From contig OZ241978.1 of assembly GCA_965204175.1 (NCBI GenBank), positions 1,044,103 through 1,108,102 of the forward strand: 64,000 nt of DNA, given 5' to 3'. This document shows positions 5,786 to 51,425 of this stretch, in pieces. The notes under the pieces were generated by a model. That model did no database searches. It saw only the letters and a program-made list of their open reading frames with translations, and was not told the DNA's origin. Source of the stretch: Vicinamibacterales bacterium. Lineage in GTDB: Bacteria > Acidobacteriota > Vicinamibacteria > Vicinamibacterales > UBA8438. A program made the position numbers and the translations under genes. Within the stretch, counting starts at the first letter, position 1. Every line of letters begins with the position of its first letter.

Positions 5786-6493
5786 TCACGGACTGCCGGG
5801 CGTAAAGACCCAGCCGATGGCGTTCCGGACAACGTCCCCCGGACCGAGGTTCAGCAGGCAGGTCCGGGTGGCTTGGAACCGGAAATTGCCGATCTCGCTG
5901 CTTACAGTCGCACCGCTGCAGGAGAAACGGCCCTCGATGCCGTTGAGAGTGCCGTCGCAGCCGGTGTCCGGATCGCAGTCTCCCGGTCTGGACACCACGT
6001 CGCCCTCCGACACTCGAATGTCGCTCCGATCGAGCGCGACCGTCCCGGCACTCGCGCCATGATCGGCGGCGCTCAGGTTTTCGAGGTTCTGTTGCGCAGT
6101 GGCGTCTCCCTGCTCGGCCGCGCGGCGGAACCAGAGCACGGCAAGCTCATCGTTTCGCTCTACGCCGCTGCCATCGGCATACATGACTCCGAGGTTGTAT
6201 TGCGCGACGGCGTGACCCTGATCAGCAGCTCGACGGAACCAGGACACGGCAAGCTCGTCATTCCGCTCCACGCCGCGACCAGCAACGTACAGGACGCCGA
6301 GGCTGAACTGTGCTTCGGGCTCTCCCCGGTCGGCCGCCTGTCGGAGCCCGGAGAGAGCTGACGTCTGCGCGGTCGATGCCGCCGGCGCCGTCACTGCAAA
6401 CAAGACCAACGCCAGTGGAATAGTGACGACGACAAGCCTTGCAACTCCCATGCCTGTAAGCCTCCTCCGTTCTTGCCATCGGCTAGTCTGCAA
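5786..6493 (-). CDS. Sel1-repeat (TPR-like) secreted protein
   Basis: Three Sel1-like repeats (EAQFSLGVLYVAGRGVERNDELAVSWFRRAADQGH, AVAQYNLGVMYADGSGVERNDELAVLWFRRAAEQGD...), a signal/TM segment and a Cys-containing C-terminal domain. An internal Met at about 6454 is a possible start. Confidence 0.75.
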   Translation of the reverse strand: MQTSRWQERRRLTGMGVARLVVVTIPLALVLFAVTAPAASTAQTSALSGLRQAADRGEPEAQFSLGVLYVAGRGVERNDELAVSWFRRAADQGHAVAQYNLGVMYADGSGVERNDELAVLWFRRAAEQGDATAQQNLENLSAADHGASAGTVALDRSDIRVSEGDVVSRPGDCDPDTGCDGTLNGIEGRFSCSGATVSSEIGNFRFQATRTCLLNLGPGDVVRNAIGWVFTPGSP

Positions 6494-20308: not shown

Positions 20309-21577
20309 ATGGTTTCTGTGGCGATTCACTTGATCCCCCGCGTTGCACAGGATCTGGTCATCCAGGCGCTTCGACGTTCCCCGGTCGTCGCCATCGTCGG
20401 GCCGCGCCAGTGCGGCAAGACCACGCTGGCGCGCCGGCTCGTGCCGGCCGATTCGCCCAACTACTTCGACCTCGAAGATCCCGTCAGCCTGGCCCGGTTG
20501 GACCAGCGGCTGACCGCGCTTCGCGACCTCACCGGCATCGTCGTCATCGACGAGGTGCAGCACCAGCCCGATTTGTTTCCGGCCCTGCGGGTGCTGGCTG
20601 ACCGCGACGACAACCCGGCCCGGTTCCTCGTGCTCGGCAGCGCCAGCCCCAACCTGCTGCGGCAGAGCGCCGAGTCGCTGGCCGGCCGCATCGAGTACAT
20701 CGAACTGGGCGGCTTCCAGCTCGCCGAGGTCGGTCCTGCGCAGATGTCGCGCCTCTGGATCCGGGGCGGGTTCCCGAGATCGTTCCTGGCCGCCGACGAC
20801 GCCGACAGCGCGGCGTGGCGGAAGGCGTTCGTCCGCACGTTCGTCGAGCGGGACCTGCCGCAGTTCGGCGCCGAGCTCCGGGCCCCGGCACTGCACCGGC
20901 TCCTGGCCATGCTGGCGCACTACCACGGGCAGATCCTCAACGTCGCCGAGCTGTCGACCGCGCTGAACGTCGCCCAGGCCACGGTGCGCAGATACCTGGA
21001 CCTGCTGGAGCAGCTCTTCCTGATTCGGCAGTTGCACCCGTGGCACGAAAACCTCCGCAAGCGGCAGGTCAAGCGCCCCAAGCTCTACGTTCGGGATCCC
21101 GGCCTGTATCACCACCTGATCGGCGTCGGCACGATGGATGCGCTGCAGACCCACCCGCGCATCGGCGCCTCGTGGGAGGGATTCATTCTCGAGAAGATGA
21201 TCGCCGAGTCCGCGCCGGACGAGGCTTACTTCTGGGCGACGCACAACGGCGCGGAGCTCGATCTGCTGCTGTTGGTCGAGGGACGGAGAGTGGGCGTCGA
21301 GATCAAGCGCGTGGACGCGCCCGGGCGCACCCGCTCGATGGCGGTTGCCTTGAACGACCTGCGGCTGGATGCCCTCTACGTGGCCTATCCGGGAGACGTG
21401 CGATACGTCATCGACGACCGCATCGCCGCGGTTCCGGCCGGTGTGCCCTTCTCGATGTTGGATACGCCGCAGGAACGCGTACTCGGACGTTATCGCGATC
21501 GTGACGGTGACGTGCCGGACTCGGTATTCGAACCGCTGACCGGGGTCGAGCTGGCTCCATGGGAAGGTGACGGATGA
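20309..21577 (+). CDS. AAA ATPase with DUF4143-like C-terminal domain
   Basis: Walker A GPRQCGKTT and Walker B VVIDEVQ. The last ~35 aa (…DVPDSVFEPLTGVELAPWEGDG) look like an antitoxin C-terminal tail rather than part of this family (see findings). Confidence 0.8.
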   Translation: MVSVAIHLIPRVAQDLVIQALRRSPVVAIVGPRQCGKTTLARRLVPADSPNYFDLEDPVSLARLDQRLTALRDLTGIVVIDEVQHQPDLFPALRVLADRDDNPARFLVLGSASPNLLRQSAESLAGRIEYIELGGFQLAEVGPAQMSRLWIRGGFPRSFLAADDADSAAWRKAFVRTFVERDLPQFGAELRAPALHRLLAMLAHYHGQILNVAELSTALNVAQATVRRYLDLLEQLFLIRQLHPWHENLRKRQVKRPKLYVRDPGLYHHLIGVGTMDALQTHPRIGASWEGFILEKMIAESAPDEAYFWATHNGAELDLLLLVEGRRVGVEIKRVDAPGRTRSMAVALNDLRLDALYVAYPGDVRYVIDDRIAAVPAGVPFSMLDTPQERVLGRYRDRDGDVPDSVFEPLTGVELAPWEGDG

Positions 21578-21959
21578 ACCTGCTGCTGGACACGTGCGCG
21601 TTGCTGTGGGCGTGGGGGCAGCCCGAGAAGCTCAACCGCCGGCGGCAGGGGTTGCTGCGCGATCCGCACAACCAGGTTTGGGTAAGTGCCGCGAGCGCCT
21701 GGGAACTGGCGACCAAGCATCGCGTCGGCAAGTTCCCGCACGGTGGACACATCGTCGCCGAGTGGGACGAGTGCATCGCACGGGATGGATTTCGCCAACT
21801 GGCCATCGCGTTCAGCCACGCGTTGCGAGCCGGCTCGATACCTGGCCGCATCGCGATCCGTTCGACCGCATGATCGCCGCCCAGGGCCTGATCGAGACGC
21901 TTCGCATCGCGACTCCGGATCCGGAAATCGCCGCTCTCGGCGCGGACACCATCTGGTGA
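21574..21959 (+). pseudogene. vapC: vapC-like PIN toxin gene with a -1 frameshift near 21830
   Basis: The N-terminal part reads MNLLLDTCALLWAW...VWVSAASAWELATKHRVGKF...SHALRAG in one frame. The conserved C-terminal part LDTWPHRDPFDRMIAAQGLIETLRIATPDPEIAALGADTIW continues in another frame. This is either a true frameshift or an assembly error. Confidence 0.7.
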
Positions 21960-22091: not shown

Positions 22092-22200
22092 CACGGAATG
22101 AGGCCGCGGTCCAGAGGACCGCGGAACAGTTGCCGCCCCCCTTCGGAGCCAGGGGCCGTCGCAGACCTTTAATGAGGCCGCGGGTATTCCCGCGGAAGAG
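22092..22200 (-). CRISPR. degenerate mini-CRISPR: two repeat-like units flanking one 36-nt spacer
   Basis: On the minus strand, 22200->22166 reads CTCTTCCGCGGGAATACCCGCGGCCTCATTAAAGG and 22129->22092 reads CTGTTCCGCGGTCCTCTGGACCGCGGCCTCATTCCGTG. The array repeat is GTCTTCCGCGGGGAATACCCGCGGCCTCATTGAAGC. The spacing between the two units is exactly 36 nt. Confidence 0.6.
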
Positions 22201-22262
22201 GGATCCCGTGCCCGAGCCTTCTTCAAATGAGGGGCACAAAGTAGAATTCATCGACCTATCTG

Positions 22263-22282
22263 TTATCTGCTACGGCCCCTGG
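22263..22282 (+). promoter_or_regulatory. candidate Cascade-binding operator: TTA + 17-nt partial protospacer matching the mini-array spacer
   Basis: The + strand reads TTA|TCTGCTACGGCCCCTGG. The mini-array spacer 5' end is TCTGCGACGGCCCCTGG. Identity is 16/17 with the mismatch at position 6. The site lies in the AT-rich intergenic region upstream of the module 2 cas operon. Confidence 0.45.
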
Positions 22283-22398
22283 AGGAAATTATGTTATCAT
22301 GCCGGTCGAACGTGCGGTGAGCAGTTGCCCGGCGCCGGGAGGTCATCAGCGCGGCAACTCGCGCCAATCGAGTTCATCATTTCACGTGAGGAAGAGCG

Positions 22399-22587
22399 AT
22401 GACACGACGACTCATCATCGAGCAAACGGAGATCCGTTCGGAGACCTTACAGACCCGCTTCGATCTGTTGATCGACGATCCGCCGTCCGACAGCGGCACG
22501 ACGGCACCACCGGTCGCGCGCCGCGCGATGCCGGTTCCTGGATTCGACGCGCCAGCGAGCCTCGGTGAAACGGAGCACAATCGATGA
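22399..22587 (+). CDS. 62-aa hypothetical protein, first gene of the module 2 cas operon
   Basis: GAGGAAG Shine-Dalgarno lies about 7 nt upstream of the ATG. The stop overlaps the csb1 start (ATGA). My hand count of third-position GC is about 71% in this frame versus about 53% in the competing 89-aa frame (22299..22568). No family recognised. Confidence 0.5.
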   Translation: MTRRLIIEQTEIRSETLQTRFDLLIDDPPSDSGTTAPPVARRAMPVPGFDAPASLGETEHNR

Positions 22588-23894
22588 GCATGACGTTGAC
22601 GGCGTCGGTACTGATCGAGGCCATTGCCGAGCACGCGGCGTTTCGCCGGATCCAGCGTCTTCAGCCGGTCGGAGGGGCGGGGGACAAGCTTTTTCCGCCG
22701 ACCTACCCGCCGCCACCGGGGGCTCGACGGGACGCGCCGCCCCGACACGTGTTCGAACGGCGGCGCGTGAACGACGGCGACGTCTGGTGCGTGCTCATCG
22801 ACAGCGTGCAGAGTCAGGCCAACCGGTTGGAAGAAGCGCTGTTGTCGGCGGCCGAACGCGGTGGGATCCGGATCCCGTACGTGACGGTCGATTTTCGAGC
22901 CGCCGGCCTGGAACCACTGGAGCGGATCACGTCGCTCGATGCGCCGCACCGGGTCTACGACGCCATCTTGCGTGACAGCCTCATGGACGGTGCGCCTTTC
23001 ATGCAGAGCCAAGTGGGCAGGCGTCTGGCGGCCGCGAAGCCCGCCGACGCCACCGCGTTGCTGGAACTGTCGCCGACGGCGCTGTTGTTCGGAGCTTGGC
23101 ACAGCCAGGGCGAGGGCGGGGGCCTCGGCGCGAAGTTCCCGCGTGCGCTCGTCTCGGAGATCATGGGCATCGATACACCGGTTGAGGGAGTTCCCAATCA
23201 ACGCGAGCGCGAGGTGGCGCGGATCAGGTTGCACGATGGTGCTCAGATCATGGTCGACGAAGTTCCCAGGCCGCGAGCAGGTGAGTTGGAGCCGCGCACG
23301 GCCGGCCGGCGTACCGGGAGTCGGATCGATCCCTTGGGCGTACTCAGAAAGGTAGAGGTCTTCAAGGGGGGGTCGGGTTGGAGTCCCGATCCGAAGGAAG
23401 CCGGAACGCGCGCGAAGAAGGTGCGCCCGTCCGAGATCAATCACGGCAACATCGCGCCGACCGTCCAACCCTTGGGCGTCACATGCGCGTACGCTGAGCA
23501 TCGCGCAGTCATCACGCTGGCAGGCCTCAGACGGCTGCGGTTCGGCAGCGACGAGCGGACCGAGGCGGGACGGGCCCTGCTCGCGGCCCTCGGCCTCGTC
23601 GCATTGGTGGAGCAGGACGCAGGCGGCTACTCCTTGCGGTCGCGCTGCGATCTCGTCTGCGACGGTCCTGCACCGCTGGAGCTCGTACGAGCAGACGGCT
23701 CGACCGAAACCGTCGATCTCCATCGTGACGAGGCGCGGGCACTGTACACAGAAACGTACGCCCGCGCCGAGTCGGCAGGTTTTCGATTCGAGTCAATCGT
23801 GCTGACTCCACAGGACAAGCTGGTCGAGATCGTCCGGTGCAGCCGAGAGCTGGCGCTTGAGGGTGCCGGCGGCGAGGAGCCCGACAACTCATGA
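22584..23894 (+). CDS. csb1: type I-G/I-U Cas7 homolog (Csb1-like), module 2
   Basis: The N-terminal pattern RLQPVGGAGDKLFPPTY...VLIDSVQSQANRLEEAL parallels [17 protein letters not shown]...[16 protein letters not shown] in the module 1 Cas7. ELSPTALLFGAWHSQ parallels [14 protein letters not shown]. At 436 aa it is about 120 aa longer than the module 1 paralog. Confidence 0.8.
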   Translation: MSMTLTASVLIEAIAEHAAFRRIQRLQPVGGAGDKLFPPTYPPPPGARRDAPPRHVFERRRVNDGDVWCVLIDSVQSQANRLEEALLSAAERGGIRIPYVTVDFRAAGLEPLERITSLDAPHRVYDAILRDSLMDGAPFMQSQVGRRLAAAKPADATALLELSPTALLFGAWHSQGEGGGLGAKFPRALVSEIMGIDTPVEGVPNQREREVARIRLHDGAQIMVDEVPRPRAGELEPRTAGRRTGSRIDPLGVLRKVEVFKGGSGWSPDPKEAGTRAKKVRPSEINHGNIAPTVQPLGVTCAYAEHRAVITLAGLRRLRFGSDERTEAGRALLAALGLVALVEQDAGGYSLRSRCDLVCDGPAPLELVRADGSTETVDLHRDEARALYTETYARAESAGFRFESIVLTPQDKLVEIVRCSRELALEGAGGEEPDNS

Positions 23895-25330
23895 GTCTCG
23901 TTCTCGAGGTCGAATTCCTGACCGGCGCGTGCCGCGCGGCGCGAAGTCCGGCGAGCGAGGCGCCCGATTGGCCGCCGCAACCCGACCGCGTCTTCTCGGC
24001 GCTGGTCTGCGCGTGGGCCGTTCGAGGCGGCCGCCGGGACGAGCGACAGGCACTGGAGTGGTTGGAGGCACAGCCCGCGCCAGCCGTTCACGCCAGTAGT
24101 CACGCCGCCAGAACGGCGCCCGACGTCTTCGTGCCGCCGAATGACCTCAAGTTCTCGAAGACGGCGAAGACGTACATCAAGGTGATGCCGGACGCACGCC
24201 CGCGCCAGCCGCGCCGGTTTCCCGTTGCTCGTCCGGACGATCCGGTAATGGCCATCGTCTGGCCGGAAGCTCCCGGTCCCGATCTGCGCGAGTCGCTGGA
24301 CGGGGTCGCACGTGACGTCGCCTATCTGGGACACTCGACAAGCCTGGTGCGTTGTCGGTTTCTTCCGGGCGCCTCGGCGACGCTTACCCACCCTGGTGCA
24401 CCCGCGCGTCGCACCGTCTACCCCGGGCGCTTGGCGGAGTTGGAAGCAGCGTATCGGGCGAACCCGGTGCGCCCCGTGATTCGGCCGGGCGCCTCCGCGT
24501 CCCGGGCGCCTGCGATGTCGACGGGCGAACCGTCGGCCGAATGGCTGGTGCTCGAAGCGATTGAGGGACAGACGCCGGATCTCCGCGCCTCCGCGTTGGT
24601 CTGCCGCGCTCTGCGGCGAGCGCTGATGGGCGGCTACCGGCGTGCTGGCATGGGCGATGTGATTCCCGAGATCGTCTCGGGACATACAGCCGATCGCAGC
24701 CCGACCCGACTGCCCCATTTGGCGATCGTGCCGCTGGCTTTCGCCGGCTATCCGCATGCCGACGGCCGCGTGTTCGGTTTCGCCCTGGTGCCGCCTGCCG
24801 GCACGAACCTGCGGGCCGTCCCCGGTTTCGTTCGGGCCTTCGAAGAGGTTGCGCCCTACGATCCAGGGCAGGAGCGTCGCGTCCTGAAGCTGGAGGGAGC
24901 GCCGCTCGGCAAGCCGCTTCATCTCGCGCCCGCCGGCGCGACGACGACCCGCTCGCTCTCGCCGGCGCCGTACACGGAGTCGGCGCAGGTGTGGGCGAGC
25001 GTCACGCCGATTGTGCTCGACCGGCACCTGAAACGGAACGGCGACCGGGAGATCCGCGAGATCATCGCCGGCGCTTGCGAGAACGCCGGCTTGCCGCGTC
25101 CAGATCCGGATCGCGTTCAGGTCGGGAAGCACTCCGCCATCGAAGGTGCGCCGCCGGCGCGGCCGCCTGCCGGCGCGCCGCCCTGGACCCGCTGGAAGAC
25201 GCCCGAATCGCTCGCCACACGCTCGCTGGTTCATGTGATCGTCGATTTCGGACGCGCCACGACGGGCCCGGTACTGCTGGGTGCCGGCCGGTTCGCCGGC
25301 CTGGGGCTGTGCCGTCGCCTGGGGAGTTGA
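23891..25330 (+). CDS. csb2: type I-G/I-U Cas5-family protein (Csb2-like), module 2
   Basis: The N-terminus MSLVLEVEFLTGACRAA...DWPPQPDRVFSALVCAW parallels MFALAFRFPAGRYHATPW...AWPPEPWRLLRALIAAW of the module 1 Csb2. C-terminal glycine-rich RAMP loop GRFAGLGL. ATGA overlap with csb1. Confidence 0.75.
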   Translation: MSLVLEVEFLTGACRAARSPASEAPDWPPQPDRVFSALVCAWAVRGGRRDERQALEWLEAQPAPAVHASSHAARTAPDVFVPPNDLKFSKTAKTYIKVMPDARPRQPRRFPVARPDDPVMAIVWPEAPGPDLRESLDGVARDVAYLGHSTSLVRCRFLPGASATLTHPGAPARRTVYPGRLAELEAAYRANPVRPVIRPGASASRAPAMSTGEPSAEWLVLEAIEGQTPDLRASALVCRALRRALMGGYRRAGMGDVIPEIVSGHTADRSPTRLPHLAIVPLAFAGYPHADGRVFGFALVPPAGTNLRAVPGFVRAFEEVAPYDPGQERRVLKLEGAPLGKPLHLAPAGATTTRSLSPAPYTESAQVWASVTPIVLDRHLKRNGDREIREIIAGACENAGLPRPDPDRVQVGKHSAIEGAPPARPPAGAPPWTRWKTPESLATRSLVHVIVDFGRATTGPVLLGAGRFAGLGLCRRLGS

Positions 25331-25332
25331 TC

Positions 25333-28300
25333 GTGGACCTTGGCGCCGCCGACTTCGGGATCTTCTTTCGTGCGATCCACGGAGACCCGCCTTTTCCGTG
25401 GCAGCAGCGTCTGGTCGACTTGCTGGCGAAAGACGACGAATGGCCCGATGTGCTGGACTTGCCCACGGGTTCGGGCAAGACCGCGGCGTTGGACGCGGCC
25501 GTCTTTCACTTGGCGTTGCGTTTCGAGTGTCCGGCGCGTGCCGCGTTGAGGATTGCCCTGGTCGTCGATCGACGCCTCGTGGTGGACGATGCCTACGAAC
25601 GCGCGACGAAGATCGAGAAGGCCCTCGACGAGGCGGCTCGCGCGGCGAAAGCGGAGTGTGGAGTTCCGCCGCTCTACGGGCCCGTGGTCGAGGTAGCCCG
25701 TCGCCTGCAACGTCTGGCCGGTGATGGAGAGCCGCCGCTCGTCGCGCGCCGACTTCGCGGAGGCGCGCCACTGGAGTCCGATTGGGCGCGGACGCCGACG
25801 CAGCCGACCATTCTCTGCTCGACCGTCGATCAGGTCGGTTCGCGGCTGCTGTTTCGGGGTTACGGCGTGTCGGATCGCATGAAGCCGGTTCACGCCGGAC
25901 TGTTCGGCCGGCACAGCCTGATCCTGCTGGACGAGGCCCATCTGTCGGAACCGTTTCGGCAGACCCTCCACGCCGTGCAGGAGATTGGCAGGGCTGAAGT
26001 GCGGACCGTCCTGCTCTCTGCGACACCGGGCATTGAACCGACGCGCCCTTTCGGACTGAGGCAAGATGACTACGCCAACCTTGAACTGAAACGTCGACTC
26101 GAAGCGCCCAAGCCCGCCAAGTTGAGTGTCGCCCACGGCGATCCGGGCGGAGCCTTCTTAAAGGCTGCCCGTGAGACCGCGGAACGGTTGCAGGGCCAGG
26201 GTGTGTCGAATCCGGCCGTCGGCGTCATCGTTAATCGAGTCGGCCTCGCGCGCGAGATCTTCGAGAAGCTGAGGGTCTTGGAGGAGGAAACAGGTTTCGA
26301 CTCCGTGCTGTTGATCGGCCGCTCGCGTCATGTCGGACGGGCTCGGATCGTCGAGAAGCTGAGCCCCTTTCGAACTGGCGAACCACGCGAATCGCCATCG
26401 TCCGCGCCTGCACGCGAGGGCACGGACGATGGGCAGCTCTCGCTCCTGCACGAGCGTCCCGGCGAATCGAATGTTCGACCACTGTTCGTGGTCGCCACGC
26501 AGTGTCTCGAGGTGGGAGTCGATCTCGATCTGGACGGGCTCGTCACGCAGGCTGCGTCGTTCGACGCACTCCGGCAGCGCTTCGGCCGGTTGAATCGAGC
26601 CGGGCGGCCGGTGTCTGCCAGCGGTGCGATTATCGCCCTCGCCGCGGACGTCGCCAAGAACGCCGACGACGCTGTCTATGGTGACCGGATAGCCAGGACC
26701 TGGGAGACGCTCCAGCGGATTGCACGTGACGATGAAGTGGACTTCGGCATCACGGCGCTGAAACAGAATCTGGCGAAAACCAAAGCGGGCGTGACCGAAC
26801 TGGCGATGCCCGGGGCGCGGGTGCCCACACTGATGCCCGCCTACGTCGATCTCTGGTCGCAGACCTCACCGCCGCCGTCCGCGGACCCCGACGTAGGGCT
26901 GTTTCTGCACGGCGTCGAGCGGACGTCCGCAGGCGTGTCGCTCGTCTGGCGCAGCGATATCACTACCGACGACTTGAGGGGCGACTGGGACCCGGCGCCC
27001 CTGCTGCAACTTGTTCCGCCGCGTGCCGCCGAGATGATCGAAGTACCGCTGTGGTCGGTGAGAGCGTGGCTGGGTGGGAGCCGGAACACGGAGCGACTGA
27101 CGAGCATGTCGGACACGGCCGAACATGGCGGTGACGAGGCGGCGTACGAGACAGGCGGAAGTGAACGCTCGGTGTTCCGTTGGGCCGGCGCCGGCGATCC
27201 GCGTACCGGGCGCGTGTCGCCGGATGCGCTACGCCCGGGTGACGTGCTGGTGGTGCCGGCCGACTACGGCGGCTGCGACGAGTTCGGGTGGGCCCCGGCT
27301 TCCGACAAGCAAGTCGCGGACCCGGCTTTCGACAAGGGGGTCAAGTGGGTCACCGACGTAGCCGACGAGGCGGCGCTGCCTTCTCGGAGACGGCGCCACG
27401 CAGTTCGGGTGGCTCGCGACGTCGTGGCGCACGACGACCAGTGGGACCGTCTTCGCGACGTTCTCGCGGATGACAGCCTCACCGGCCGCGACTTGGCAGA
27501 CCGGCTTCTGGAGGTGCTGCCGGTCGAATCACCGTCGGACTCGGACGATGAGAACGAAGGCGTCTCGCGCAGGCGCGCGGTACGCGAGCCATTGGAAGCA
27601 CTACTACGGCATGCAAAGGTACGGAACGGCATCAGCACGGACTTTCCGTATGCCGGCGGTCGTAGTGGAGGAACAGTGCTCGTTGCGCTCCATGGGGTGT
27701 GGGAACCCGGCGCAATCGAAGCGCGGAAACCTGATGGGCGACCGGTAACCGAAGACGACCGGCTTTCGCGTGCTGCACGGAACCCCGTGAGCATCGACGC
27801 ACACACGGCTCATGTCGTCGCGAACGTGGATCGCATCGTGCAGACACTCTGGGATCCCGATCTGCCCGTCGCCGGCGACCTGAAGCTCGCCGCGTTTTTG
27901 CATGATGCCGGGAAGGCGGATCCGCGCTTCCAGAACCTGTTGTCGGGCGGCGACCCGTGGAATCGTCCGGACGGTCCCGCAATGGCCAAGAGCGGCAACC
28001 GGTCTCCGAAGGGCGCCTGGGAACAGGCAGGTCTTCCGAGAGGATGGCGTCATGAGGCCCTTTCCGTGCGGATGGCGCAGGCGCATCCACGATTTGCGGA
28101 AGCCAACGATCCGGCCCTCGTGCTGTGGTTGATTGGTACGCACCACGGATTCGGACGGCCGTTCTTCGATTTCGCCGACCCGCACGATGGCGGTTTGGGT
28201 CACGAGGGAGTATTCGCTTGTCTCGACGTCGAGTGCTGGCGGCTTGCTTCTCGATCCGCACCGCAATCGATGGCCTTCGACCTCGATGGCGCCGACTGGC

Positions 28301-28416
28301 CGGCGATGTACGAGCAACTCAAGCAACGGTACGGAACCTGGGGATTGGCCCACCTGGAAGCGGTCCTGCGTCTGGCGGACCATCGTGCATCGGAGTCCGA
28401 GCAACACGATGACTGA
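25333..28416 (+). CDS. cas3: Cas3 helicase with C-terminal HD nuclease domain, module 2
   Basis: Walker A LPTGSGKT and DEAH box (LLDEAHLS). The C-terminal HD motifs are IDAHTAHV, AAFLHDAGKADPRFQ, WRHEALS and IGTHHGFGRP. A C-terminal HD is the I-U/I-G arrangement. The GTG at 25333 is approximate, and the upstream part of the 1141-aa track ORF overlaps csb2. Confidence 0.9.
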   Translation: MDLGAADFGIFFRAIHGDPPFPWQQRLVDLLAKDDEWPDVLDLPTGSGKTAALDAAVFHLALRFECPARAALRIALVVDRRLVVDDAYERATKIEKALDEAARAAKAECGVPPLYGPVVEVARRLQRLAGDGEPPLVARRLRGGAPLESDWARTPTQPTILCSTVDQVGSRLLFRGYGVSDRMKPVHAGLFGRHSLILLDEAHLSEPFRQTLHAVQEIGRAEVRTVLLSATPGIEPTRPFGLRQDDYANLELKRRLEAPKPAKLSVAHGDPGGAFLKAARETAERLQGQGVSNPAVGVIVNRVGLAREIFEKLRVLEEETGFDSVLLIGRSRHVGRARIVEKLSPFRTGEPRESPSSAPAREGTDDGQLSLLHERPGESNVRPLFVVATQCLEVGVDLDLDGLVTQAASFDALRQRFGRLNRAGRPVSASGAIIALAADVAKNADDAVYGDRIARTWETLQRIARDDEVDFGITALKQNLAKTKAGVTELAMPGARVPTLMPAYVDLWSQTSPPPSADPDVGLFLHGVERTSAGVSLVWRSDITTDDLRGDWDPAPLLQLVPPRAAEMIEVPLWSVRAWLGGSRNTERLTSMSDTAEHGGDEAAYETGGSERSVFRWAGAGDPRTGRVSPDALRPGDVLVVPADYGGCDEFGWAPASDKQVADPAFDKGVKWVTDVADEAALPSRRRRHAVRVARDVVAHDDQWDRLRDVLADDSLTGRDLADRLLEVLPVESPSDSDDENEGVSRRRAVREPLEALLRHAKVRNGISTDFPYAGGRSGGTVLVALHGVWEPGAIEARKPDGRPVTEDDRLSRAARNPVSIDAHTAHVVANVDRIVQTLWDPDLPVAGDLKLAAFLHDAGKADPRFQNLLSGGDPWNRPDGPAMAKSGNRSPKGAWEQAGLPRGWRHEALSVRMAQAHPRFAEANDPALVLWLIGTHHGFGRPFFDFADPHDGGLGHEGVFACLDVECWRLASRSAPQSMAFDLDGADWPAMYEQLKQRYGTWGLAHLEAVLRLADHRASESEQHDD

Positions 28417-29455
28417 AAGCTCCACGCATCGTCTGGCGGGTCTGGAACCCGACAACCTGTTGGCCTTCCTGGCTCTGCTGGGTATGCTGCGCACGCTCGA
28501 ACATGTGCGATCCGCATGGCGCCCACGCGTGGCGTGGACGGTCGACACGCCGCCTGTCCGGCCGACGTTGACCGTCGCCACGCGGGCGACGGAGGACGGG
28601 ATCATTGCCGCGGTCTCGGAGGGGCTGGCGGATCTGGCCGACCGCCACGACTTCAATCGACTCAAGGACCTGAAGCTCTCTCCGAAGGAGGCAGCCGAGA
28701 GACTCCGAATGGCCGTGACCCGGGACCGGTACACGTCCGACCTGTGGGCAGCTCTGACCAGCGATGCCGCGGTTCGTGAAAAGAACAAGGTGCAAGAGGC
28801 GGAACCGACGCCTCTTTGTCTCCTGTTCGGCCAGGGACATATGCACTTCATGTCCCGCTTGGCATCCGTTCCGCAGGAATCGGTCCCGCCGGCCAGGGGT
28901 GCCGGCCGCAAGAAGATCGCCATTGGGGAAACGGACTGTCTGCGCGAAGCGCTGCTCGAGCCCTGGACACGCCCGGACGCGACGTTCTCGTTCCGATGGG
29001 ACCCGCACGAGGACGTGCGCTACGCGTTGCGCGCCACCGACCCGACGGATTCCAAGACCAAGGAGACGACGCAGCACGGAGCCAACCGGCTGGCCGCCAT
29101 CGGCCTCTCCACGCTGACTGTGGTTCCGCGGCTGCGTGGCGCGACCGCTCGGCTCGCCGTTATCGGCGGAATGCGTGAACGGGGCGGCGGTTTCGCCTTC
29201 ACGTGGCCGATCTGGCGTCACCCGATCAGTCTTGCGACGATTCGATCTCTGCTTGGCCACACTGGACTCGACAAGCGGGCCACCTGGGATGCGCTGAGTA
29301 TTCTCGAGTTGCGGCGAGCGCGCCGAATCTCGGTTGGCAAGTTCATGAACTTCACGAGGGCTGAGTCGATTGGCGAGCCGGAGGCAGAGACGCGGGCTTC
29401 CCGCAACGGCTCGGTTGTGGCTTCACGCCCAGGGTCGCCCGGTGGGGCCGCGTAG
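28409..29455 (+). CDS. short Cas8u-like protein (Csb3/Csx17-N-like), module 2
   Basis: The N-terminus HRLAGLEPDNLLAFLALLGMLRTL resembles LALHGCAPTPLASYLKALGVLRLV of the module 1 Csx17. The ATG overlaps the cas3 stop by 8 nt. At 348 aa it is far shorter than the 845-aa Csx17. Assignment rests on position and this weak N-terminal similarity only. Confidence 0.55.
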   Translation: MTESSTHRLAGLEPDNLLAFLALLGMLRTLEHVRSAWRPRVAWTVDTPPVRPTLTVATRATEDGIIAAVSEGLADLADRHDFNRLKDLKLSPKEAAERLRMAVTRDRYTSDLWAALTSDAAVREKNKVQEAEPTPLCLLFGQGHMHFMSRLASVPQESVPPARGAGRKKIAIGETDCLREALLEPWTRPDATFSFRWDPHEDVRYALRATDPTDSKTKETTQHGANRLAAIGLSTLTVVPRLRGATARLAVIGGMRERGGGFAFTWPIWRHPISLATIRSLLGHTGLDKRATWDALSILELRRARRISVGKFMNFTRAESIGEPEAETRASRNGSVVASRPGSPGGAA

Positions 29456-29695: not shown

Positions 29696-31237
29696 ATGCC
29701 CCCCCCGTCGGAGAAGCTGGCCGGTTCCCTGGACGCCCTGCGGTCCCTGCAGGAGCGCGGCGTCGTCGCCGTGCGCGCTGCGGCTCTCCCGCGATCGCAC
29801 CGCGAGCGGCTCGTCCGGCACGGGTTCCTGTTGCCGGTCATGAAGGGCTGGTACGTCGCCGGCTCGCCGGACCGGCAAGCGGGCGACAGCACGGCGTGGT
29901 ACGCGTCGTTCTGGCGGTTCTGCGCCGGCTACCTGCACGCCCGCTTCGGCGAGGCCTGGTGCCTGTCGCCGGAGCAGTCCCTCTTGCTGCAGGCTGGCAA
30001 TCGAACGGTGCCGGAGCAGCTCCTTGTCCGGGCGCCGAGGGGGCGCAACCGCGTCACTCCCTTGCTTCACGGAACGTCCCTGCTGGAAGTCCGCGCGGCG
30101 ATGCCCGCAGCCGGAGACGTCGTGGAGGTGGACGGTATGCGCGCGTTCAGTCCGGCCGCCGCGCTGATCGCCTGCCCGGCCCGGTTCTTCCAGCGGCATC
30201 CGGTCGATGCGCGGGCGGCGCTCGCCCTCGTGGGCGACGCGTCGGATGTGCTGCCCCGTCTTCTCGACGGGGGCCACGGCACGGTCGCCGGCCGTCTCGC
30301 CGCCGCCTTCCGCGACGTCGGTCGGGACGGGATAGCGAACGAGATCGTCGAGACGATGCGGGCGGCCGACTTCGGTGTCCGGGAATCCAGTCCCTTCGCG
30401 ACGGCGTCCCCCGCGCGGCCGATCCGGCGCGACGTCTCTCCGGTGGCTCGGCGGCTGCATCTGATCCGGGACGCCACGCGAGGCCGCGTCCTCGACCGCT
30501 TTCCCCGCCCGCCCGGCCGCCCCGCCGAGGTCGAGGTCGTGCTCGCCCGGATCGAGGACGTCTACGCTACCGATGCATACCACTCGCTCTCCATCGAGGG
30601 CTATCGCGTCAGTCCGACCCTGATCGCCCGCGTGCGCAGCGGTGATTGGAACCCGGAGCGTCAGCCGGCGGACCGGGTCCACCGCGACGCGCTGGCCGCC
30701 CGCGGCTACTGGCAGGCCTACCAGGCCGTGCGCAACAGCGTCCGCCGCGCGGTTGCGGGCGAGCCTCCCGGCGCCGTCGCCGAAGCGGATCACCGGACCT
30801 GGTACCGCGAGCTGTTCGCGCCGAGCGTCGCCGCCGGCCTCGTCCGCCCGGCCGATCTCGCCGGTTACCGCGACGCGCCCGTCTTCATCCAGCGCTCGAT
30901 GCACGTACCGCCGAGCCCGCGCGCCGTCCGCGACGCGATGCCGGCGCTGTTCGGGCTGCTGCGGGAAGAGCCGGACCCGGCGGTGCGCGCCGTGCTCGGG
31001 CACTTCCTGTTCGTCTACGTCCATCCCTACCCGGACGGCAACGGCCGCATCGGCCGGTTCCTGATGAACCTGATGCTGACGGCCGCCGGCTATCCCTGGA
31101 CGGTGATCCCGGTCGAGCGCCGGGATGCGTACATGGCGGCGCTCGAAGCGGCGAGCGTGCGGCACGACATCGGTCCGTTCACCGATTTTCTGGCCGGGTT
31201 GGTGGGTGAAGGGGCGATTACAGCCGGGTTTGGGTAG
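29696..31237 (+). CDS. Fic/DOC family protein with AbiEi-like N-terminal wHTH domain
   Basis: Fic motif HPYPDGNGRIGR (HxFx[D/E]GNGRxxR). The N-terminal LRSLQERGVVAVRAAALPRSHRERLVRHGFLLPVMKGWYV resembles AbiEi-type antitoxin domains. Confidence 0.85.
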   Translation: MPPPSEKLAGSLDALRSLQERGVVAVRAAALPRSHRERLVRHGFLLPVMKGWYVAGSPDRQAGDSTAWYASFWRFCAGYLHARFGEAWCLSPEQSLLLQAGNRTVPEQLLVRAPRGRNRVTPLLHGTSLLEVRAAMPAAGDVVEVDGMRAFSPAAALIACPARFFQRHPVDARAALALVGDASDVLPRLLDGGHGTVAGRLAAAFRDVGRDGIANEIVETMRAADFGVRESSPFATASPARPIRRDVSPVARRLHLIRDATRGRVLDRFPRPPGRPAEVEVVLARIEDVYATDAYHSLSIEGYRVSPTLIARVRSGDWNPERQPADRVHRDALAARGYWQAYQAVRNSVRRAVAGEPPGAVAEADHRTWYRELFAPSVAAGLVRPADLAGYRDAPVFIQRSMHVPPSPRAVRDAMPALFGLLREEPDPAVRAVLGHFLFVYVHPYPDGNGRIGRFLMNLMLTAAGYPWTVIPVERRDAYMAALEAASVRHDIGPFTDFLAGLVGEGAITAGFG

Positions 31238-34097: not shown

Positions 34098-35747
34098 TCA
34101 GGCCGAGGGAGGGGGAGCGAACACTCCCAGGCCGAAATGACTGCCGTACCCGACGGCCAGCGGCCCCTCAATGGCTTCGGGCAGCACGACGTCGAGCAGC
34201 GCGCCGGCCGCGTCCGGCTGGACCTCCCGGCCGCGGGAACGGAAGCGGTGAAAGTGGATTGCACGGCGAGGCGTCCCGCCGACGTCGATGGTCTTCCGCA
34301 GCTTGACGTCCACATCCGTCGCATCCAGCCCGCGCCGTTTCAGCAACCGGCGCACCTCGCCCGGGTAGCCGGCCGCCTTCAAGTGTCCGGACGCCAGGAA
34401 CGGCGTCACGCTCCGCCAGCGCCTCGACGTGCCGAAGATGCGCGCGCCGCCGGCGAAGTTGGCCGGTTCGCCGAAGCCCTCCAGCGCCAGCCGCCATTCC
34501 TTTACGCCGCCTGCCTCGGCATCGACTTCTTCGGATCGCTGCTTCGGCGCCAGCCAGAGCCGGGTGATGCGGTCCAGGCCGGCCTGGACCTCGCCGGTCA
34601 TGCCGCCGGCGACGAACACGGACACGTGATCGATCCAGCCGTCCCCGTCCGCATCCTCAGGGAGCCAGAACGCGTGCCGGTGGAACGGGTCCTTGAGCGG
34701 CTTCCCGTCGGCGTCGCGGCCTGAAATCTCCCACGGCGCCAGTGGTACCGGGTGATCGTTCGCCTCGTCGCGTCGCCAACCGAACTGCGCGAGGGCCGCC
34801 CGGCGCATCAGCTCGCCGATTCTGACCGCGTCCTCGATGCGGGGAAGCGGCCGGCCGGCGAGCAGAAAGCGGGCGACGGTGGGCAGATGGCGTGCGGCTC
34901 GGTTCGGGAGGCGGACAAGGCGGGCAATTACGCCCGGCGCGGCTTCCGGTGCCCGCGCGTAGACGACCTCGCGGGCGGCGGGCGGGCGGCTCCAGCCCCG
35001 GTCCTGGTAGTCGGCCGTGTCCAGAGCGAGCGCATCGACGAGGCGCTCGGGCAGCGTGTGCGCCTGTCTTCCCTTGCTCTTCAGTGCCTTGTCGAGTTGC
35101 TTCTCGACCGCGCCCTCCGTGGGTGGTTTCCCGGGCGCCGCGAGCATCTGATGCTTGATGTCGTCCATGATTCGCTGCCGCTCGGCTCTGTAGTCGCCGG
35201 GCGTGTGCGGGGCCAGCAGCCGCACGGGATCTCCTTCCGGCGCGCCGTCGAGCGGCCGGCAATTCGCGGCGCCGTCCCACTCTGCGAGCGCTTCACACTC
35301 CGTCCAGCTCTCGGCCCGGCCGAGGTAACCGATGGCGAGGGCGAGATCCGCGGCGAACCCGAACGCTTCCGCGTCCAGCGTCACGCGCGGCCACGCGGCG
35401 ACCAGGGTCGAGCGGGCGGGGAGCCGCACGAACGCGTCGAAGACGAGCGTGGTCTTCGGCCGTCCCTTGTCCAGACCGCCGGTCGGCATGTAGTGACGCG
35501 TGTGGGCATGGATGACGCCCTCCGGCAGGCTGTACTCCGGCAGGGTCTCGGCGAGCGTGTCGATCAGTCGCGCGAGGTCGTCCTCTGACCAGCGCGCCCG
35601 GTCGCCCTTGCGCCACCAAGCGGCGATGAGGGCGCGCAGCAGACGCCACGGCTCCGGCGGCCAAGCAACGTCGGCCTCGTTGACGTTGCGGCCCCACGGC
35701 GTCGCGTGGTAGCGACCGGCGGGGAAGCGGAAGGCGAGTGCGAACAT
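34098..35747 (-). CDS. csb2: type I-G Csb2 (Cas5-Cas6 fusion, GSU0054-like), module 1
   Basis: 549 aa. N-terminus MFALAFRFPAGRYHATPWGRNVNEADVAWPPEPWRLLRALIAAW, C-terminal RAMP glycine loop GYGSHFGLGVF. Last gene of the minus-strand effector operon. Confidence 0.85.
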   Translation of the reverse strand: MFALAFRFPAGRYHATPWGRNVNEADVAWPPEPWRLLRALIAAWWRKGDRARWSEDDLARLIDTLAETLPEYSLPEGVIHAHTRHYMPTGGLDKGRPKTTLVFDAFVRLPARSTLVAAWPRVTLDAEAFGFAADLALAIGYLGRAESWTECEALAEWDGAANCRPLDGAPEGDPVRLLAPHTPGDYRAERQRIMDDIKHQMLAAPGKPPTEGAVEKQLDKALKSKGRQAHTLPERLVDALALDTADYQDRGWSRPPAAREVVYARAPEAAPGVIARLVRLPNRAARHLPTVARFLLAGRPLPRIEDAVRIGELMRRAALAQFGWRRDEANDHPVPLAPWEISGRDADGKPLKDPFHRHAFWLPEDADGDGWIDHVSVFVAGGMTGEVQAGLDRITRLWLAPKQRSEEVDAEAGGVKEWRLALEGFGEPANFAGGARIFGTSRRWRSVTPFLASGHLKAAGYPGEVRRLLKRRGLDATDVDVKLRKTIDVGGTPRRAIHFHRFRSRGREVQPDAAGALLDVVLPEAIEGPLAVGYGSHFGLGVFAPPPSA

Positions 35748-35751
35748 GCGC

Positions 35752-39224
<3,473 letters not shown>

Positions 39225-39235
<11 letters not shown>

Positions 39236-42068: not shown

Positions 42069-43778
42069 GTGTCAGCTCCGGAACTTCGCGAGCCGCCGGT
42101 CCAGCCCGTCTCCGCCGACGCCCCGCCGCTGGTGCCGGCGCGCATGGTCAACGAGTACGTCTACTGCCCCCGGCTGGCCTACCTGGAATGGGTGCAGGGC
42201 GAGTGGGTCGATTCGTCCGACACCGTCGAGGGACGTCACGCGCACCGGCGGGTCAACCGCGACGGCGGGAAGCTGCCGCCGCCCGCCGACGTCGACAAGG
42301 CCGAGAAGCTGCACGCGCGCTCGATCACCCTTTCGTCGGAGCGCCTGGGCCTCATCGCCCGCATGGATCTGATCGAATCGGACGGCGACAAGGTCACCCC
42401 GGTCGACTACAAGCGCGGCAAGCGACCCCACATCGAGCGCGGGGCCTACGACCCCGAGCGCGTGCAGCTCTGCGTGCAGGGGCTCCTGCTGCGCGAGCAC
42501 GGCTATGCGTGCGACGAGGGCGTCCTCTATTTCGTCGGCAGCCGCGAACGGGTGCGCGTCGCCTTCGACGACGAGCTCGTGGCCCTCACGCGTCAGGCGG
42601 TCGAGGGGTTGCGCGGCGTCGCCGCGGAGGGCGTCATTCCGCCGCCGCTCGAGGACAGTCCCAAGTGTCCGCGCTGCTCGCTGGTCGAGGTCTGCCTGCC
42701 GGACGAGGTCCACCATCTGAAGGGCGCCGATGTCGCGCCGCGCCCGATTGCCGTGCCCTGCACCGAGGCGCTGCCGCTCTACGTCCAGGCCCGCCGCGCG
42801 AAGGTCTCCAAGTCGGGCGAGACCCTGGTCGTGACGGTGGAGGACGCCGAGCTGGCGACGGCCCGGCTGGAGGAGACCTCGCAGGTGGTCGTCATGGGCA
42901 ACGTCTACCTGACCACGCCCACCCTGCACGAGCTGATGTGGCGCGGCATTCCCGTCACCTGGCACAGCTACGGCGGCTGGTTCTTCGGCCACACCGTGGG
43001 CAACGGCCACAAGAACGTCGAGCTGCGGACCGCGCAGTATCGGGCGAGCTTCGACGAGCGGACGTGCCTGCGGTTCGCCCGGGGACTGGTGACGGCGAAG
43101 ATCCAGAACTGCCGCACGTTGCTGCGCCGCAACTGGAAGCGGGCGGAGAGCAGCAATCCCGTTCTGGTCGATCTGCGCGGCGACAGCCTGCGCGCGGGCC
43201 GGGCGACCTCGCTGCCGGAGCTGCTCGGGGTCGAAGGGACCGCCGCGGCGCGCTATTTCCGCTCCTTCGGCGCCATGCTGAACAAGTCGGAGTCTGACGG
43301 CGAGTTCGGGTTCGACTTCGAGACGCGGAACCGCCGGCCTCCGAAGGATCCGGTCAACGCACTCCTGTCCCTCGCCTACTCGCTGCTGGTCCGAGCCTGG
43401 ACGGTCACGCTGGCCGCGGTCGGGTTCGACGCGTATCGCGGCCTCTACCATCAACCCCGCTACGGCCGCCCGGCGCTCGCGCTCGACCTGATGGAGCCGT
43501 TCCGCCCGCTGGTGGCCGACTCCGTCGTCGTGCAGGCGATCAACAACGGCGAGGTCAAGCCGACCGATTTCAAGTCCGTGGCCGGCAGCGTCAACCTGGA
43601 CGCCGCCGGCCGGCGGCGGTTCATCTCGACCTTCGAGCGCCGTCTCGGGCACGAGGTCGTGCACCCGCTGTTCGGCTACCGCGTCAGCTACCGCCGCCTG
43701 ATGGAGATGCAGGCCCGCCTGTTCGGGCGCTTTCTCCTGGGCGAGCTTCCCGAATATCCCAACTTCAACACGCGGTGA
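42069..43778 (+). CDS. cas1: Cas4-Cas1 fusion protein
   Basis: N-terminal Cas4 nuclease (YVYCPRLAYLEW, DYKRGK, CPRCSLVEVC Cys cluster) fused to Cas1 (NALLSLAYSLL, DLMEPFRPLVADSVV), as is usual for type I-G/I-U. Confidence 0.9.
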   Translation: MSAPELREPPVQPVSADAPPLVPARMVNEYVYCPRLAYLEWVQGEWVDSSDTVEGRHAHRRVNRDGGKLPPPADVDKAEKLHARSITLSSERLGLIARMDLIESDGDKVTPVDYKRGKRPHIERGAYDPERVQLCVQGLLLREHGYACDEGVLYFVGSRERVRVAFDDELVALTRQAVEGLRGVAAEGVIPPPLEDSPKCPRCSLVEVCLPDEVHHLKGADVAPRPIAVPCTEALPLYVQARRAKVSKSGETLVVTVEDAELATARLEETSQVVVMGNVYLTTPTLHELMWRGIPVTWHSYGGWFFGHTVGNGHKNVELRTAQYRASFDERTCLRFARGLVTAKIQNCRTLLRRNWKRAESSNPVLVDLRGDSLRAGRATSLPELLGVEGTAAARYFRSFGAMLNKSESDGEFGFDFETRNRRPPKDPVNALLSLAYSLLVRAWTVTLAAVGFDAYRGLYHQPRYGRPALALDLMEPFRPLVADSVVVQAINNGEVKPTDFKSVAGSVNLDAAGRRRFISTFERRLGHEVVHPLFGYRVSYRRLMEMQARLFGRFLLGELPEYPNFNTR

Positions 43779-43782
43779 TCCC

Positions 43783-44070
43783 GTGGAGCACCTCTACATC
43801 GTCGTCTACGACATCAGCGACCCCAAGCGGTGGAGGCGGGTATTCAAGTTGATGAAGGGATACGGCGAATGGGTGCAACTCTCCGTCTTCCAATGCCGTC
43901 TGAGCCGGCGCCGCCACGCCGATCTGGTTGCACGGCTCGACGCGATGATCGATCATGCCGAGGATCACGTCGTGCTGGTCGACATCGGCGTCGCCGACGG
44001 CGTGGAGCCGCGCTTCGTGAGTCTGGGGAAGAAGTTCCAGGCCGTGCGCCGGGAGCCGGTCATCGTCTGA
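43783..44070 (+). CDS. cas2: Cas2
   Basis: LYIVVYDISDPKRWRRVFKLMKGYGEWVQLSVFQC...VVLVDIG. GTG start 5 nt after cas4/1. Confidence 0.9.
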   Translation: MEHLYIVVYDISDPKRWRRVFKLMKGYGEWVQLSVFQCRLSRRRHADLVARLDAMIDHAEDHVVLVDIGVADGVEPRFVSLGKKFQAVRREPVIV

Positions 44071-50200: not shown

Positions 50201-51425
50201 AGAAGCCGACGATCGGCGTGCCGCGTCTTCCGCGGGGAATACCCGCGGCCTCATTGAAGCGCGGACGCCCACGCGACCGGGTCCGATGGGACGATCCGTC
50301 TTCCGCGGGGAATACCCGCGGCCTCATTGAAGCGTGACTAACCATGTCGCAACCTCTCTATCGTTCGATAGTCTTCCGCGGGGAATACCCGCGGCCTCAT
50401 TGAAGCGTCGGCGTGCTGAGCACGATGTAGCGGTCCAGGTCCGAGTCTTCCGCGGGGAATACCCGCGGCCTCATTGAAGCGCGAGGATCGTCATGGCTCA
50501 GTTTTTGCGGACCCTGCGTCTTCCGCGGGGAATACCCGCGGCCTCATTGAAGCAGCCGCGACGTCGCACGCCACAGGACGCCCGGCGTGGGTCTTCCGCG
50601 GGGAATACCCGCGGCCTCATTGAAGCTCTGCGGACGCCGTCTACGGCGCCGACACCCTCGCGGTCTTCCGCGGGGAATACCCGCGGCCTCATTGAAGCGG
50701 TCAGTCCTGCCGTGAGCGTCCCCGACAGCAACGCGTCTTCCGCGGGGAATACCCGCGGCCTCATTGAAGCACGCGCCCGGTCAGGTAGCGGCTGGCGGCC
50801 ACCTTGTCTTCCGCGGGGAATACCCGCGGCCTCATTGAAGCATGCTGAACGCGTGGTTCCGCGGGGTCGGCGCGGGGCCGTCTTCCGCGGGGAATACCCG
50901 CGGCCTCATTGAAGCAGTGCGATATCTGCGACCGGTTGCGCGTGTATTGGCGCGTCTTCCGCGGGGAATACCCGCGGCCTCATTGAAGCCGCAGGTCTCG
51001 CACGACTTCCGTGCCCGTGCGCCCTGTCTTCCGCGGGGAATACCCGCGGCCTCATTGAAGCCGCATGATTACTCGCGTCCAACCGGCAGCACCCGACCAG
51101 TCTTCCGCGGGGAATACCCGCGGCCTCATTGAAGCCCCGTCAGCTTGTTCTGGTCGGCCGCGGACGCGTCCGTCTTCCGCGGGGAATACCCGCGGCCTCA
51201 TTGAAGCACCCCCTGCGGCGTCGGCAGCACGCCGGCGACCGGCGTCTTCCGCGGGGAATACCCGCGGCCTCATTGAAGCGAGGTGGTCGAGAACGACGCG
51301 GACCAGCGCCAGGCGAGTCTTCCGCGGGGAATACCCGCGGCCTCATTGAAGCTGCAAGACCACGCCCGCGAATGCGGGCAATAACCGTCGTCTTCCGCGG
51401 GGAATACCCGCGGCCTCATTGCTAT
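44281..51425 (+). CRISPR. CRISPR array, 100 copies of a 36-nt repeat, 99 spacers
   Basis: Repeat GTCTTCCGCGGGGAATACCCGCGGCCTCATTGAAGC has an internal hairpin CCGCGGG-GAATA-CCCGCGG. The 3' ATTGAAGC end and the cas2-proximal leader suggest + strand transcription. My manual parse gives repeat starts from 44281 to 51390. Spacers 4-99 are 34-41 nt. The last repeat degenerates after nt 32 (…CATTGCTAT). Confidence 0.98.

Follow-up and report, generated by a model that had tools for sequence, protein, structure and literature searches.

We examined a DNA stretch of 64,000 nucleotides (nt), referred to as the window, from a Vicinamibacterales bacterium (Acidobacteriota; assembly GCA_965204175.1, contig OZ241978.1, positions 1,044,103 to 1,108,102), in which a small element related to CRISPR arrays (clusters of short palindromic repeats at regular intervals) lies on the minus strand about 200 nt upstream of the first gene of a plus-strand csb1-csb2-cas3g operon. 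Judged by its sequence, this mini-array most probably encodes a CreR-type guide RNA that represses its own operon, a variant of type I-G that lacks Cas8g. The element would owe its function to a partial target flanked by a protospacer-adjacent motif (PAM) in the operon's predicted promoter region. This target is absent from the first-pass annotation, which had described a degenerate two-repeat mini-CRISPR and whose interpretation was thus incomplete.

Read on the minus strand, the mini-array consists of a first repeat-like unit, PsiR1 (CTCTTCCGCGGGAATACCCGCGGCCTCATTAAAGG, 22200->22166), a guide, PsiS (TCTGCGACGGCCCCTGGCTCCGAAGGGGGGCGGCAA, 22165->22130), and a second repeat-like unit, PsiR2 (CTGTTCCGCGGTCCTCTGGACCGCGGCCTCATTCCGTG, 22129->22092), the sequences of both units having been checked base for base. 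The 5' end of PsiS (TCTGCGACGGCCCCTGG) matched positions 22266-22282 of the plus strand (TCTGCTACGGCCCCTGG) at 16 of 17 bases, the sole mismatch being at position 6, and the matching ended after position 17 of the guide. This target seed is directly preceded on the same strand by TTA (22263..22265), which fits the TTN PAM published for type I-G, and a full-length protospacer would extend from 22266 to 22301. Guide and target are 100 nt apart, and the AT-rich stretch around the target is the predicted divergent promoter region. When both strands of the window were searched (128 kilobases), it ranked as the best seed-type match of PsiS, with 15 contiguous non-sixth positions matched; the runner-up sites reached 10 positions and had no TT PAM. 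No other combination of a handle-plus-guide and a TTN-flanked target was found in the window. None of the spacers of the large CRISPR array of the window matched the window as a self-target, and no repeat-like unit was found between cas3g and cas4/1 of the canonical system nearby.

The first-pass annotation had proposed aligning this intergenic region in homologous csb1-csb2-cas3 loci, and in such an alignment the element recurred in the same register, an outcome that favours its reading. Our survey covered 81 loci, namely the window and 80 loci whose Csb1 is related to the variant at 54-83% identity; these 80 came from Acidobacteriota, Alpha- and Gammaproteobacteria, Chloroflexota, Binatia, Bacillota and other taxa. 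With a periodic criterion, in which positions 6 and 12 were ignored, a guide/target pair was found in 23 of the 81 loci, while cross-locus comparisons and reversed sequences gave 0 and PAM dinucleotides other than TT gave 0 to 2. With a position-blind criterion (at least 14 of 18 positions identical), a pair was found in 27 of the 81 loci compared with 0 of 405 cross-locus control comparisons. Among the PAM dinucleotides, TT alone was enriched before the targets. The mismatches in the 27 loci were concentrated at position 6 (20 loci), position 12 (17 loci), position 18 (21 loci) and position 9 (9 loci), with at most 3 at any other position. The paired positions were kept at 15 out of 15 and positions 6, 12 and 18 were at chance level. 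Such a 5+1 periodicity is expected of Cascade and characterises its mode of pairing. The mismatch at position 9, which the periodicity of 6, 12 and 18 does not predict, was found in loci L008, L009, L018, L019, L034, L035, L036, L055 and L068, whose guides are otherwise unrelated; in L035 the mismatches were at positions 6, 9, 15, 18, 21 and 24.

PAM and handle counts were taken from a hand-checked subset of 18 loci. The consensus of the 8 nt before the guide was ATTGAAGC, and the PAMs were TTA (9 loci), TTT (4 loci), TTG (3 loci) and TTC (2 loci). Guide:target identity past position 18 was at chance level in these loci. PsiR2 was present in all 18 as a hairpin of 6 to 9 base pairs (bp) followed by 4 nt and (A/T)TT and was degenerate further 3', and its stems varied by lineage with their complementarity kept (CCGCGG.., CCGCGA../..TCGCGG, CCGGGCC, CCCCGGC and CCACAGAG). 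Relative to the start of csb1, the guide began at about -330 to -420 overall and at -331 to -372 in most loci, and the target began at -276 to -318 in most loci.

Covariation between guide and target was measured on an alignment made with MAFFT. Since eight of its 22 rows were out of register (seven of them by exactly 3 columns), the 14 in-register rows were used instead. In these 14 loci, which had been chosen by the guide:target match itself, both sides changed at 16 of the 18 guide:target positions, and the covariation score was 0.813 compared with 0.215 in shuffles, none of the 500 shuffles reaching 0.813. The same was seen at shorter range in four closer relatives (L081-L084; 88-98% Csb1 identity). 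The window and L081 have their seed in common, L084 has three coordinated C to T changes in guide and target (..ACGGCCCCTGG in the window and ..ATGGTCCTTGG in L084), and L082 (98% Csb1 identity) differs solely at target position 12 and at the third base of the PAM. The element belongs to the cas module because sequence similarity among these close relatives begins at PsiR2 while the upstream neighbours vary.

The large array of the window (44281-51420, +; about 100 repeats of GTCTTCCGCGGGGAATACCCGCGGCCTCATTGAAGC, modal spacer length 36) served as the reference for the anatomy of the element. PsiR1 differs from the array repeat by G1 to C, the deletion of one G, G to A at base 4 of the handle and C36 to G. 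It has a 7-bp stem (22195-22189 with 22184-22178) followed by CCTC and the 8-nt 5' handle ATTAAAGG (22173-22166), which is identical to ATTGAAGC at 6 of 8 bases. PsiR2 has a 9-bp stem (22124-22116 with 22112-22104) followed by CCTC, ATT and a degenerate tail. The computed folding energies were -15.4 kcal/mol for the 7-bp stem of the array repeat, -14.5 kcal/mol for PsiR1 and -17.8 kcal/mol for PsiR2 (z = -4.3). The 13-mer CCGCGGCCTCATT was confined in the window to the array and to two minus-strand sites in the mini-array, its chance expectation being 0.33 per window with at most 1 mismatch allowed. In Rfam, PsiR1 matched CRISPR-DR16 over its full length on the minus strand, below threshold. 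A truncated 3' repeat end, R0' (CCCCTCATTTGAAG, 22234->22221, -), lies near the point where transcription of the mini-array is predicted to begin and is separated from PsiR1 by a 20-nt remnant (AAGGCTCGGGCACGGGATCC, 22201..22220, -), read from the sequence, which is probably a collapsed spacer. R0' was also found in L001, L081 and L082; the 20-nt remnant was kept in L081 and L082, and L001 has full-length spacers in its place. The element was rejected as a bona fide CRISPR array, having a single spacer, two units unlike each other and unlike the repeat, and an operon without cas1, cas2 and cas4.

The descriptive part of the first-pass annotation held up throughout. The coordinates and sequences that it gave for both repeats and for the partial repeat end proved exact on re-reading, the spacing between the repeats was exactly 36 nt (22130-22165) as it had stated, and both units were confirmed as able to fold. 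It had also noted that no open reading frame (ORF) explains the element, and we found that the three mechanically called ORFs across the mini-array interval had no coding-like pattern of G+C at third codon positions and no match in Pfam, and that gene callers left this interval empty in L081-L084. The mini-array occupies a 440-nt gap between a PIN-domain gene and a 62-amino-acid (aa) ORF. The PIN-domain (VapC-like) gene (21574-21959, +) appears frameshifted, with its N-terminal part at 21574-21873 and a C-terminal HRDPFDRM... motif in another frame, ending at 21959.

For type I-G, Shangguan et al. showed that Csb2 cleaves on the 3' side of a 7-bp stem, at a distance of 4 nt, and that the product has a 5' handle of 8 nt. 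The array repeat fits this rule exactly, with CCGCGGG-GAATA-CCCGCGG followed by CCTC and, after the cut, ATTGAAGC. The conservation of CCTC|ATT in the mini-array agrees with this published cleavage site, and by the same rule Csb2 is predicted to cut PsiR1 between 22174 and 22173 and PsiR2 between 22100 and 22099. The predicted mature RNA would thus run from 22173 to 22100, a length of 74 nt, and would consist of the handle ATTAAAGG, PsiS, the PsiR2 hairpin and CCUC. In two proteobacterial relatives, L019 (1200-1217, -) and L078 (3803-3820, -), a T-rich tail that the scan marked as terminator-like follows the PsiR2 hairpin, and PsiR2 may for this reason also serve to terminate the guide RNA; in the window PsiR2 is followed by a weak T run only.

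When the window was aligned with six other Vicinamibacterales loci, the two Ts of the PAM and a T..TA...T core proved invariant in all seven. The core belongs to a putative extended -10 element that lies 22-42 nt into the protospacer and has the form TGnTAnnnT in six of these loci. For the cas operon of the window, this alignment places the putative element at TGTTATCAT (22292..22300, +), protospacer positions 27-35. The putative -10 of the mini-array promoter, TCTACT (22245-22240, -), aligned with TGATATCCT, TATCCT, TATACT and TATAAT in relatives; it sits just beyond the PAM, and the putative -35 region would overlap the PAM and the seed. In L019, a sigma-70 scan predicted a plus-strand promoter (TTGACA-18-TATCGT) with its -35 at protospacer positions 26-31 and a second, minus-strand promoter wholly within the protospacer, and in L078 it predicted TTGACA-17-TATCTT with the -35 at protospacer positions 27-32. 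TTGACA-like hexamers were seen by eye at the matching place in L009, L015, L055 and L074. Since these predicted divergent promoters lie in or at the protospacer, a bound complex would cover both.

From these features we propose that the mini-array would be transcribed on the minus strand from the PAM-adjacent promoter and that Csb2 would cut 4 nt 3' of each hairpin to give the 74-nt RNA, similar to a CRISPR RNA (crRNA), with its ATTAAAGG handle, 36-nt PsiS and PsiR2 hairpin. This guide RNA would assemble with Csb1 and Csb2, and the complex would bind the TTA-flanked site at 22266-22282, pairing at guide positions 1-5, 7-11 and 13-17 only. Because pairing ends at position 17, the R-loop would be incomplete, and the DNA would be bound without being degraded by Cas3. 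Once bound, the complex would sit over two back-to-back promoters, that of the cas operon and that of the mini-array, and repress both, which would constitute negative autoregulation. Derepression would follow if the complex were titrated by crRNAs of the 100-spacer array or blocked by anti-CRISPRs.

Several observations weigh against this proposal. A sigma-70 scan of the intergenic region of the window returned no promoter, and the -10 elements described there come from the alignment alone. The handle of PsiR1 carries two substitutions (ATTAAAGG compared with ATTGAAGC). The operon is without Cas8g, to which PAM reading and Cas3 recruitment are attributed in canonical type I-G, and the two Cascades of the window are both candidates for loading the guide RNA. 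About two thirds of the 81 loci had no guide/target pair, some of them having too short an upstream sequence and some a full array at this place. The selection of the covariation loci by the match itself counts on the same side.

The strongest competitor, to which we give a minor but real chance, is that the guide is loaded by the canonical type I-G Cascade of the window (Cas8g-Csb1-Csb2, 34098-39235), which would then repress the csb1-csb2-cas3 operon as an accessory module. PsiR1 is nearly a copy of the repeat of the main array, loop included, whereas the PsiR1 units of the relatives are far more degenerate; the regulated operon has no Cas8g, array or adaptation genes; and TTN is documented as the PAM of type I-G systems that contain Cas8g. 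The near-copy of the array repeat and the missing components of the operon suggest that the canonical Cascade may process and load the RNA, in which case the guide would link two co-resident type I-G systems and the crRNAs of the array may arm both effectors; alternatively, the Cas8g-less complex would read TTN itself. We hold such a link to be possible but improbable. Against loading by the canonical Cascade, the element accompanies the variant operon across phyla in loci that have no cas8g within 4 kilobases of csb1 (0 of the 80 related loci), 13 of which have their own divergent cas4/1-cas2. Moreover, the two Csb1/Csb2 sets of the window are only about 25-36% identical in local alignments, so a common RNA recognition cannot be assumed. 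It is less likely again that PsiS is the CreA antitoxin of an addiction module of the CreTA/CrePA type, whose toxin would be the 62-aa ORF or an unrecognised small RNA and in which loss or inhibition of Cascade would arrest the cell. A precedent is documented in type I-F, where CreA represses a small protein toxin, CreP, of 103 aa, and the 62-aa ORF is the first behind the targeted promoter, is conserved and has no known domain. However, this ORF overlaps the start of csb1 (ATGA) and keeps its position in distant loci as a member of the operon would, and there is no separate toxin gene between guide and target. The window also contains a strong Shine-Dalgarno sequence followed by ATG-TTA-TCA (22281-22320, +; GGAGG-N5-ATG TTA TCA TGC CGG TCG AAC GTG CGG TGA), a 9-codon mini-ORF that overlaps the protospacer and whose initial codons are rare in this genome of 69% GC. 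As a candidate for a CreT-like toxin, this mini-ORF (22291-22320) was judged a coincidence, being found in no relative and lying upstream of the conserved, predicted -10.

The two remaining explanations do without any guide function, and we consider both very improbable. The element could be a non-functional relic, the trailer end of a former array of the operon in neutral decay. Its match to the leader region would then be an accident of history, for instance a self spacer acquired long ago. A collapsed array is indeed what R0' and the 20-nt remnant look like; L001 retains three spacers, full arrays occupy the same place in some relatives, and the element probably did originate from a lost array. 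Neutral decay, however, would not keep 15 out of 15 paired positions while positions 6, 12 and 18 drop to chance, would not give coordinated double changes in guide and target, and would not preserve the TT PAM, the handle and the PsiR2 hairpin across phyla. The first-pass annotation had read the hairpin and CCTCATT as kept while other positions drift; the same parts appear to be kept across the homologous loci, and the retention of parts predicted to be recognised by Csb2 argues against a decaying relic. Even less credible is a plain inverted repeat (22149-22165 with 22266-22282) with no connection to Cascade, which would act as an operator for a protein, form the terminal inverted repeats of a small mobile element or pair as a long-range stem in RNA. 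Guide and target are on opposite strands, 100 nt apart, and so do form an inverted repeat, but none of these structures would place mismatches at every sixth position or need TT on one arm and the ATTGAAGC handle on the other, and in some loci, such as L055, guide and target are on the same strand. An operator or a small mobile element was thus rejected on account of the periodic mismatches and the asymmetry of PAM and handle.

The operon that the CreR-type guide would repress begins with the conserved 62-aa ORF (22399..22587, +), which was called in L081-L084 and is followed by the csb1/cas7g variant (22584..23894, +; 436 aa; TIGR02570, E = 5.5e-19), csb2 (23891..25330, +; a Cas5-Cas6 fusion and the candidate processing enzyme; TIGR02165, E = 3.8e-87), cas3g (25330..28416, +; approximate start, the mechanical ORF running from 24991; TIGR02621, E = 3.4e-218) and a gene of the type I-G Cas3-extension family (28413..29455, +; approximate start). 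It thus carries the type I-G core of Csb1/Cas7g, Csb2 and Cas3g; the type I-G large subunit and the Cas4-Cas1 fusion were not found in it. The first-pass annotation had called this operon adaptation-less, and profile matches agreed, showing no cas8g/csx17, cas4-cas1 fusion, cas1, cas2 or cas4 between 22399 and 29455. The architecture csb1-csb2-cas3-hypothetical has been described as atypical in mycobacteria. The nearest relatives of the variant operon are in Vicinamibacterales genomes. Some of the 80 related loci have their own cas4/1-cas2 and several have a full array, so the variant operon is a stand-alone system elsewhere. In the 62-aa ORF, about 30 conserved N-terminal residues (MTRRLIIEQTEIRSETFRTRFDLLIDDPPSD) are followed by a proline-rich tail; a Pfam search with it gave no match, and distant proteobacterial loci have ORFs of 60-70 aa at the equivalent position before csb1. 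Its product could be an unrecognised subunit of the Cas8g-less effector or a CreP-like toxin.

Cas8g/Csx17 and the Cas4-Cas1 fusion were found in the window solely in the neighbouring canonical system, which comprises the effector genes cas3g, cas8g/csx17, csb1 and csb2 (41933->34098, -) and cas4/1 and cas2 (42069-44070), followed by the large array. The canonical Csb1 is 318 aa long, compared with 436 aa for the variant. The leader-proximal end of the array (44281-44465, +) is aberrant, its first three inter-repeat intervals being 25, about 8 and about 8 nt rather than about 36 nt, and the 3' end of the second repeat is altered (..CATTGGCGT). The variant operon is followed by a 513-aa Fic-domain protein (29696-31237, +), and in L083 (1-404) a Fic protein, also of 513 aa, is encoded immediately upstream of the mini-array. 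In L082, L083 and L084 the element is flanked by PhdYeFM/PIN toxin-antitoxin genes, and the module appears to be part of a defence island rich in toxin-antitoxin genes. At 6082-6302 (+) of the window, Tandem Repeats Finder reported a tandem duplication of 108 nt, in about 2 copies with 76-79% identity.

CreR mini-CRISPRs were demonstrated in types I-B, I-E and V-A by Liu et al. (bioRxiv 10.1101/2023.03.10.532045), whose text on I-U (now I-G) has one line on manually found creA-like elements, pointing to Fig. S7. The element of the window shares with CreR (10.1101/2023.03.10.532045) the PsiR1-PsiS-PsiR2 layout, with the 5' handle retained in PsiR1 and the 3' handle or hairpin in PsiR2, a PsiS whose match to a site bearing the PAM of the subtype is limited to the PAM-proximal part, the lack of an evident toxin gene and, by prediction, the location of the site at or in the promoter of the effector cas genes. 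It differs from CreR in its subtype, the Cas8g-less I-G variant, in its match of 17 nt with positions 6 and 12 free, in a guide that would be transcribed divergently from putative back-to-back promoters that are both in the protospacer, and in the remnants of the former array (R0' and the 20-nt stub) that are still attached. The mini-arrays of Shmakov et al. (bioRxiv 10.1101/2023.03.03.530964) likewise have two repeat-like units and a spacer partly complementary to a cas promoter with the correct PAM, tolerate a mismatch at position 6 and were proposed to originate from the terminal unit of an array. Their main text covers types I-B, I-D, I-E, I-F1 and V-A, with targets upstream of cas8, cas10d or cas6, whereas the first regulated genes here are the 62-aa ORF and csb1; neither I-G nor I-U is mentioned in the main text of that preprint or of two later preprints on crRNA-like RNAs. 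The CreTA and CrePA modules have the same guide architecture and the same logic of repression, and in CrePA a -35 element lies directly downstream of the CreA target. Here, by contrast, no toxin is recognisable and the repressed transcript would be the cas operon itself. In the tracr-L and scaRNA systems, natural guides derived from repeats direct Cas9 with limited complementarity to a promoter, which is repressed without cutting. The mini-array resembles these in being a natural repeat-derived guide of limited complementarity aimed at a promoter, but tracr-L is a class 2 single-protein system with guides derived from the tracrRNA, while here a Cascade would use a mini-array with predicted processing by Csb2. 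The canonical array of the window (44281-51420) has the same repeat family, hairpin, CCTC|ATTGAAGC context and 36-nt spacer length as the mini-array. Its exact repeats number about 100, its spacers are unique and its leader is next to cas4/1-cas2, whereas the mini-array offers one guide between degenerate flanks, with a target in its own locus.

With the element taken as a CreR-type autorepressor, what looked like two stray degenerate repeats becomes a regulatory circuit that can be tested, in the type I subtype that has been studied least. The guide/target pairs of the 27 loci are an in-silico readout of the Cas8g-less variant, giving its PAM (TTN, TTA being the commonest), its 5+1 pairing and, as the sequences suggest, the length of pairing that would be tolerated without self-destruction (17 nt). 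The element would also mark the position of the cas promoter, which would help in expressing or derepressing such systems. If the guide were loaded by the canonical Cascade, one CRISPR-Cas system would set the expression of a second, accessory effector module, and if the Cas8g-less complex reads TTN itself, the PAM would be recognised by a subunit other than Cas8g. The arrangement in the window further suggests that two adjacent type I-G systems may share a single array.

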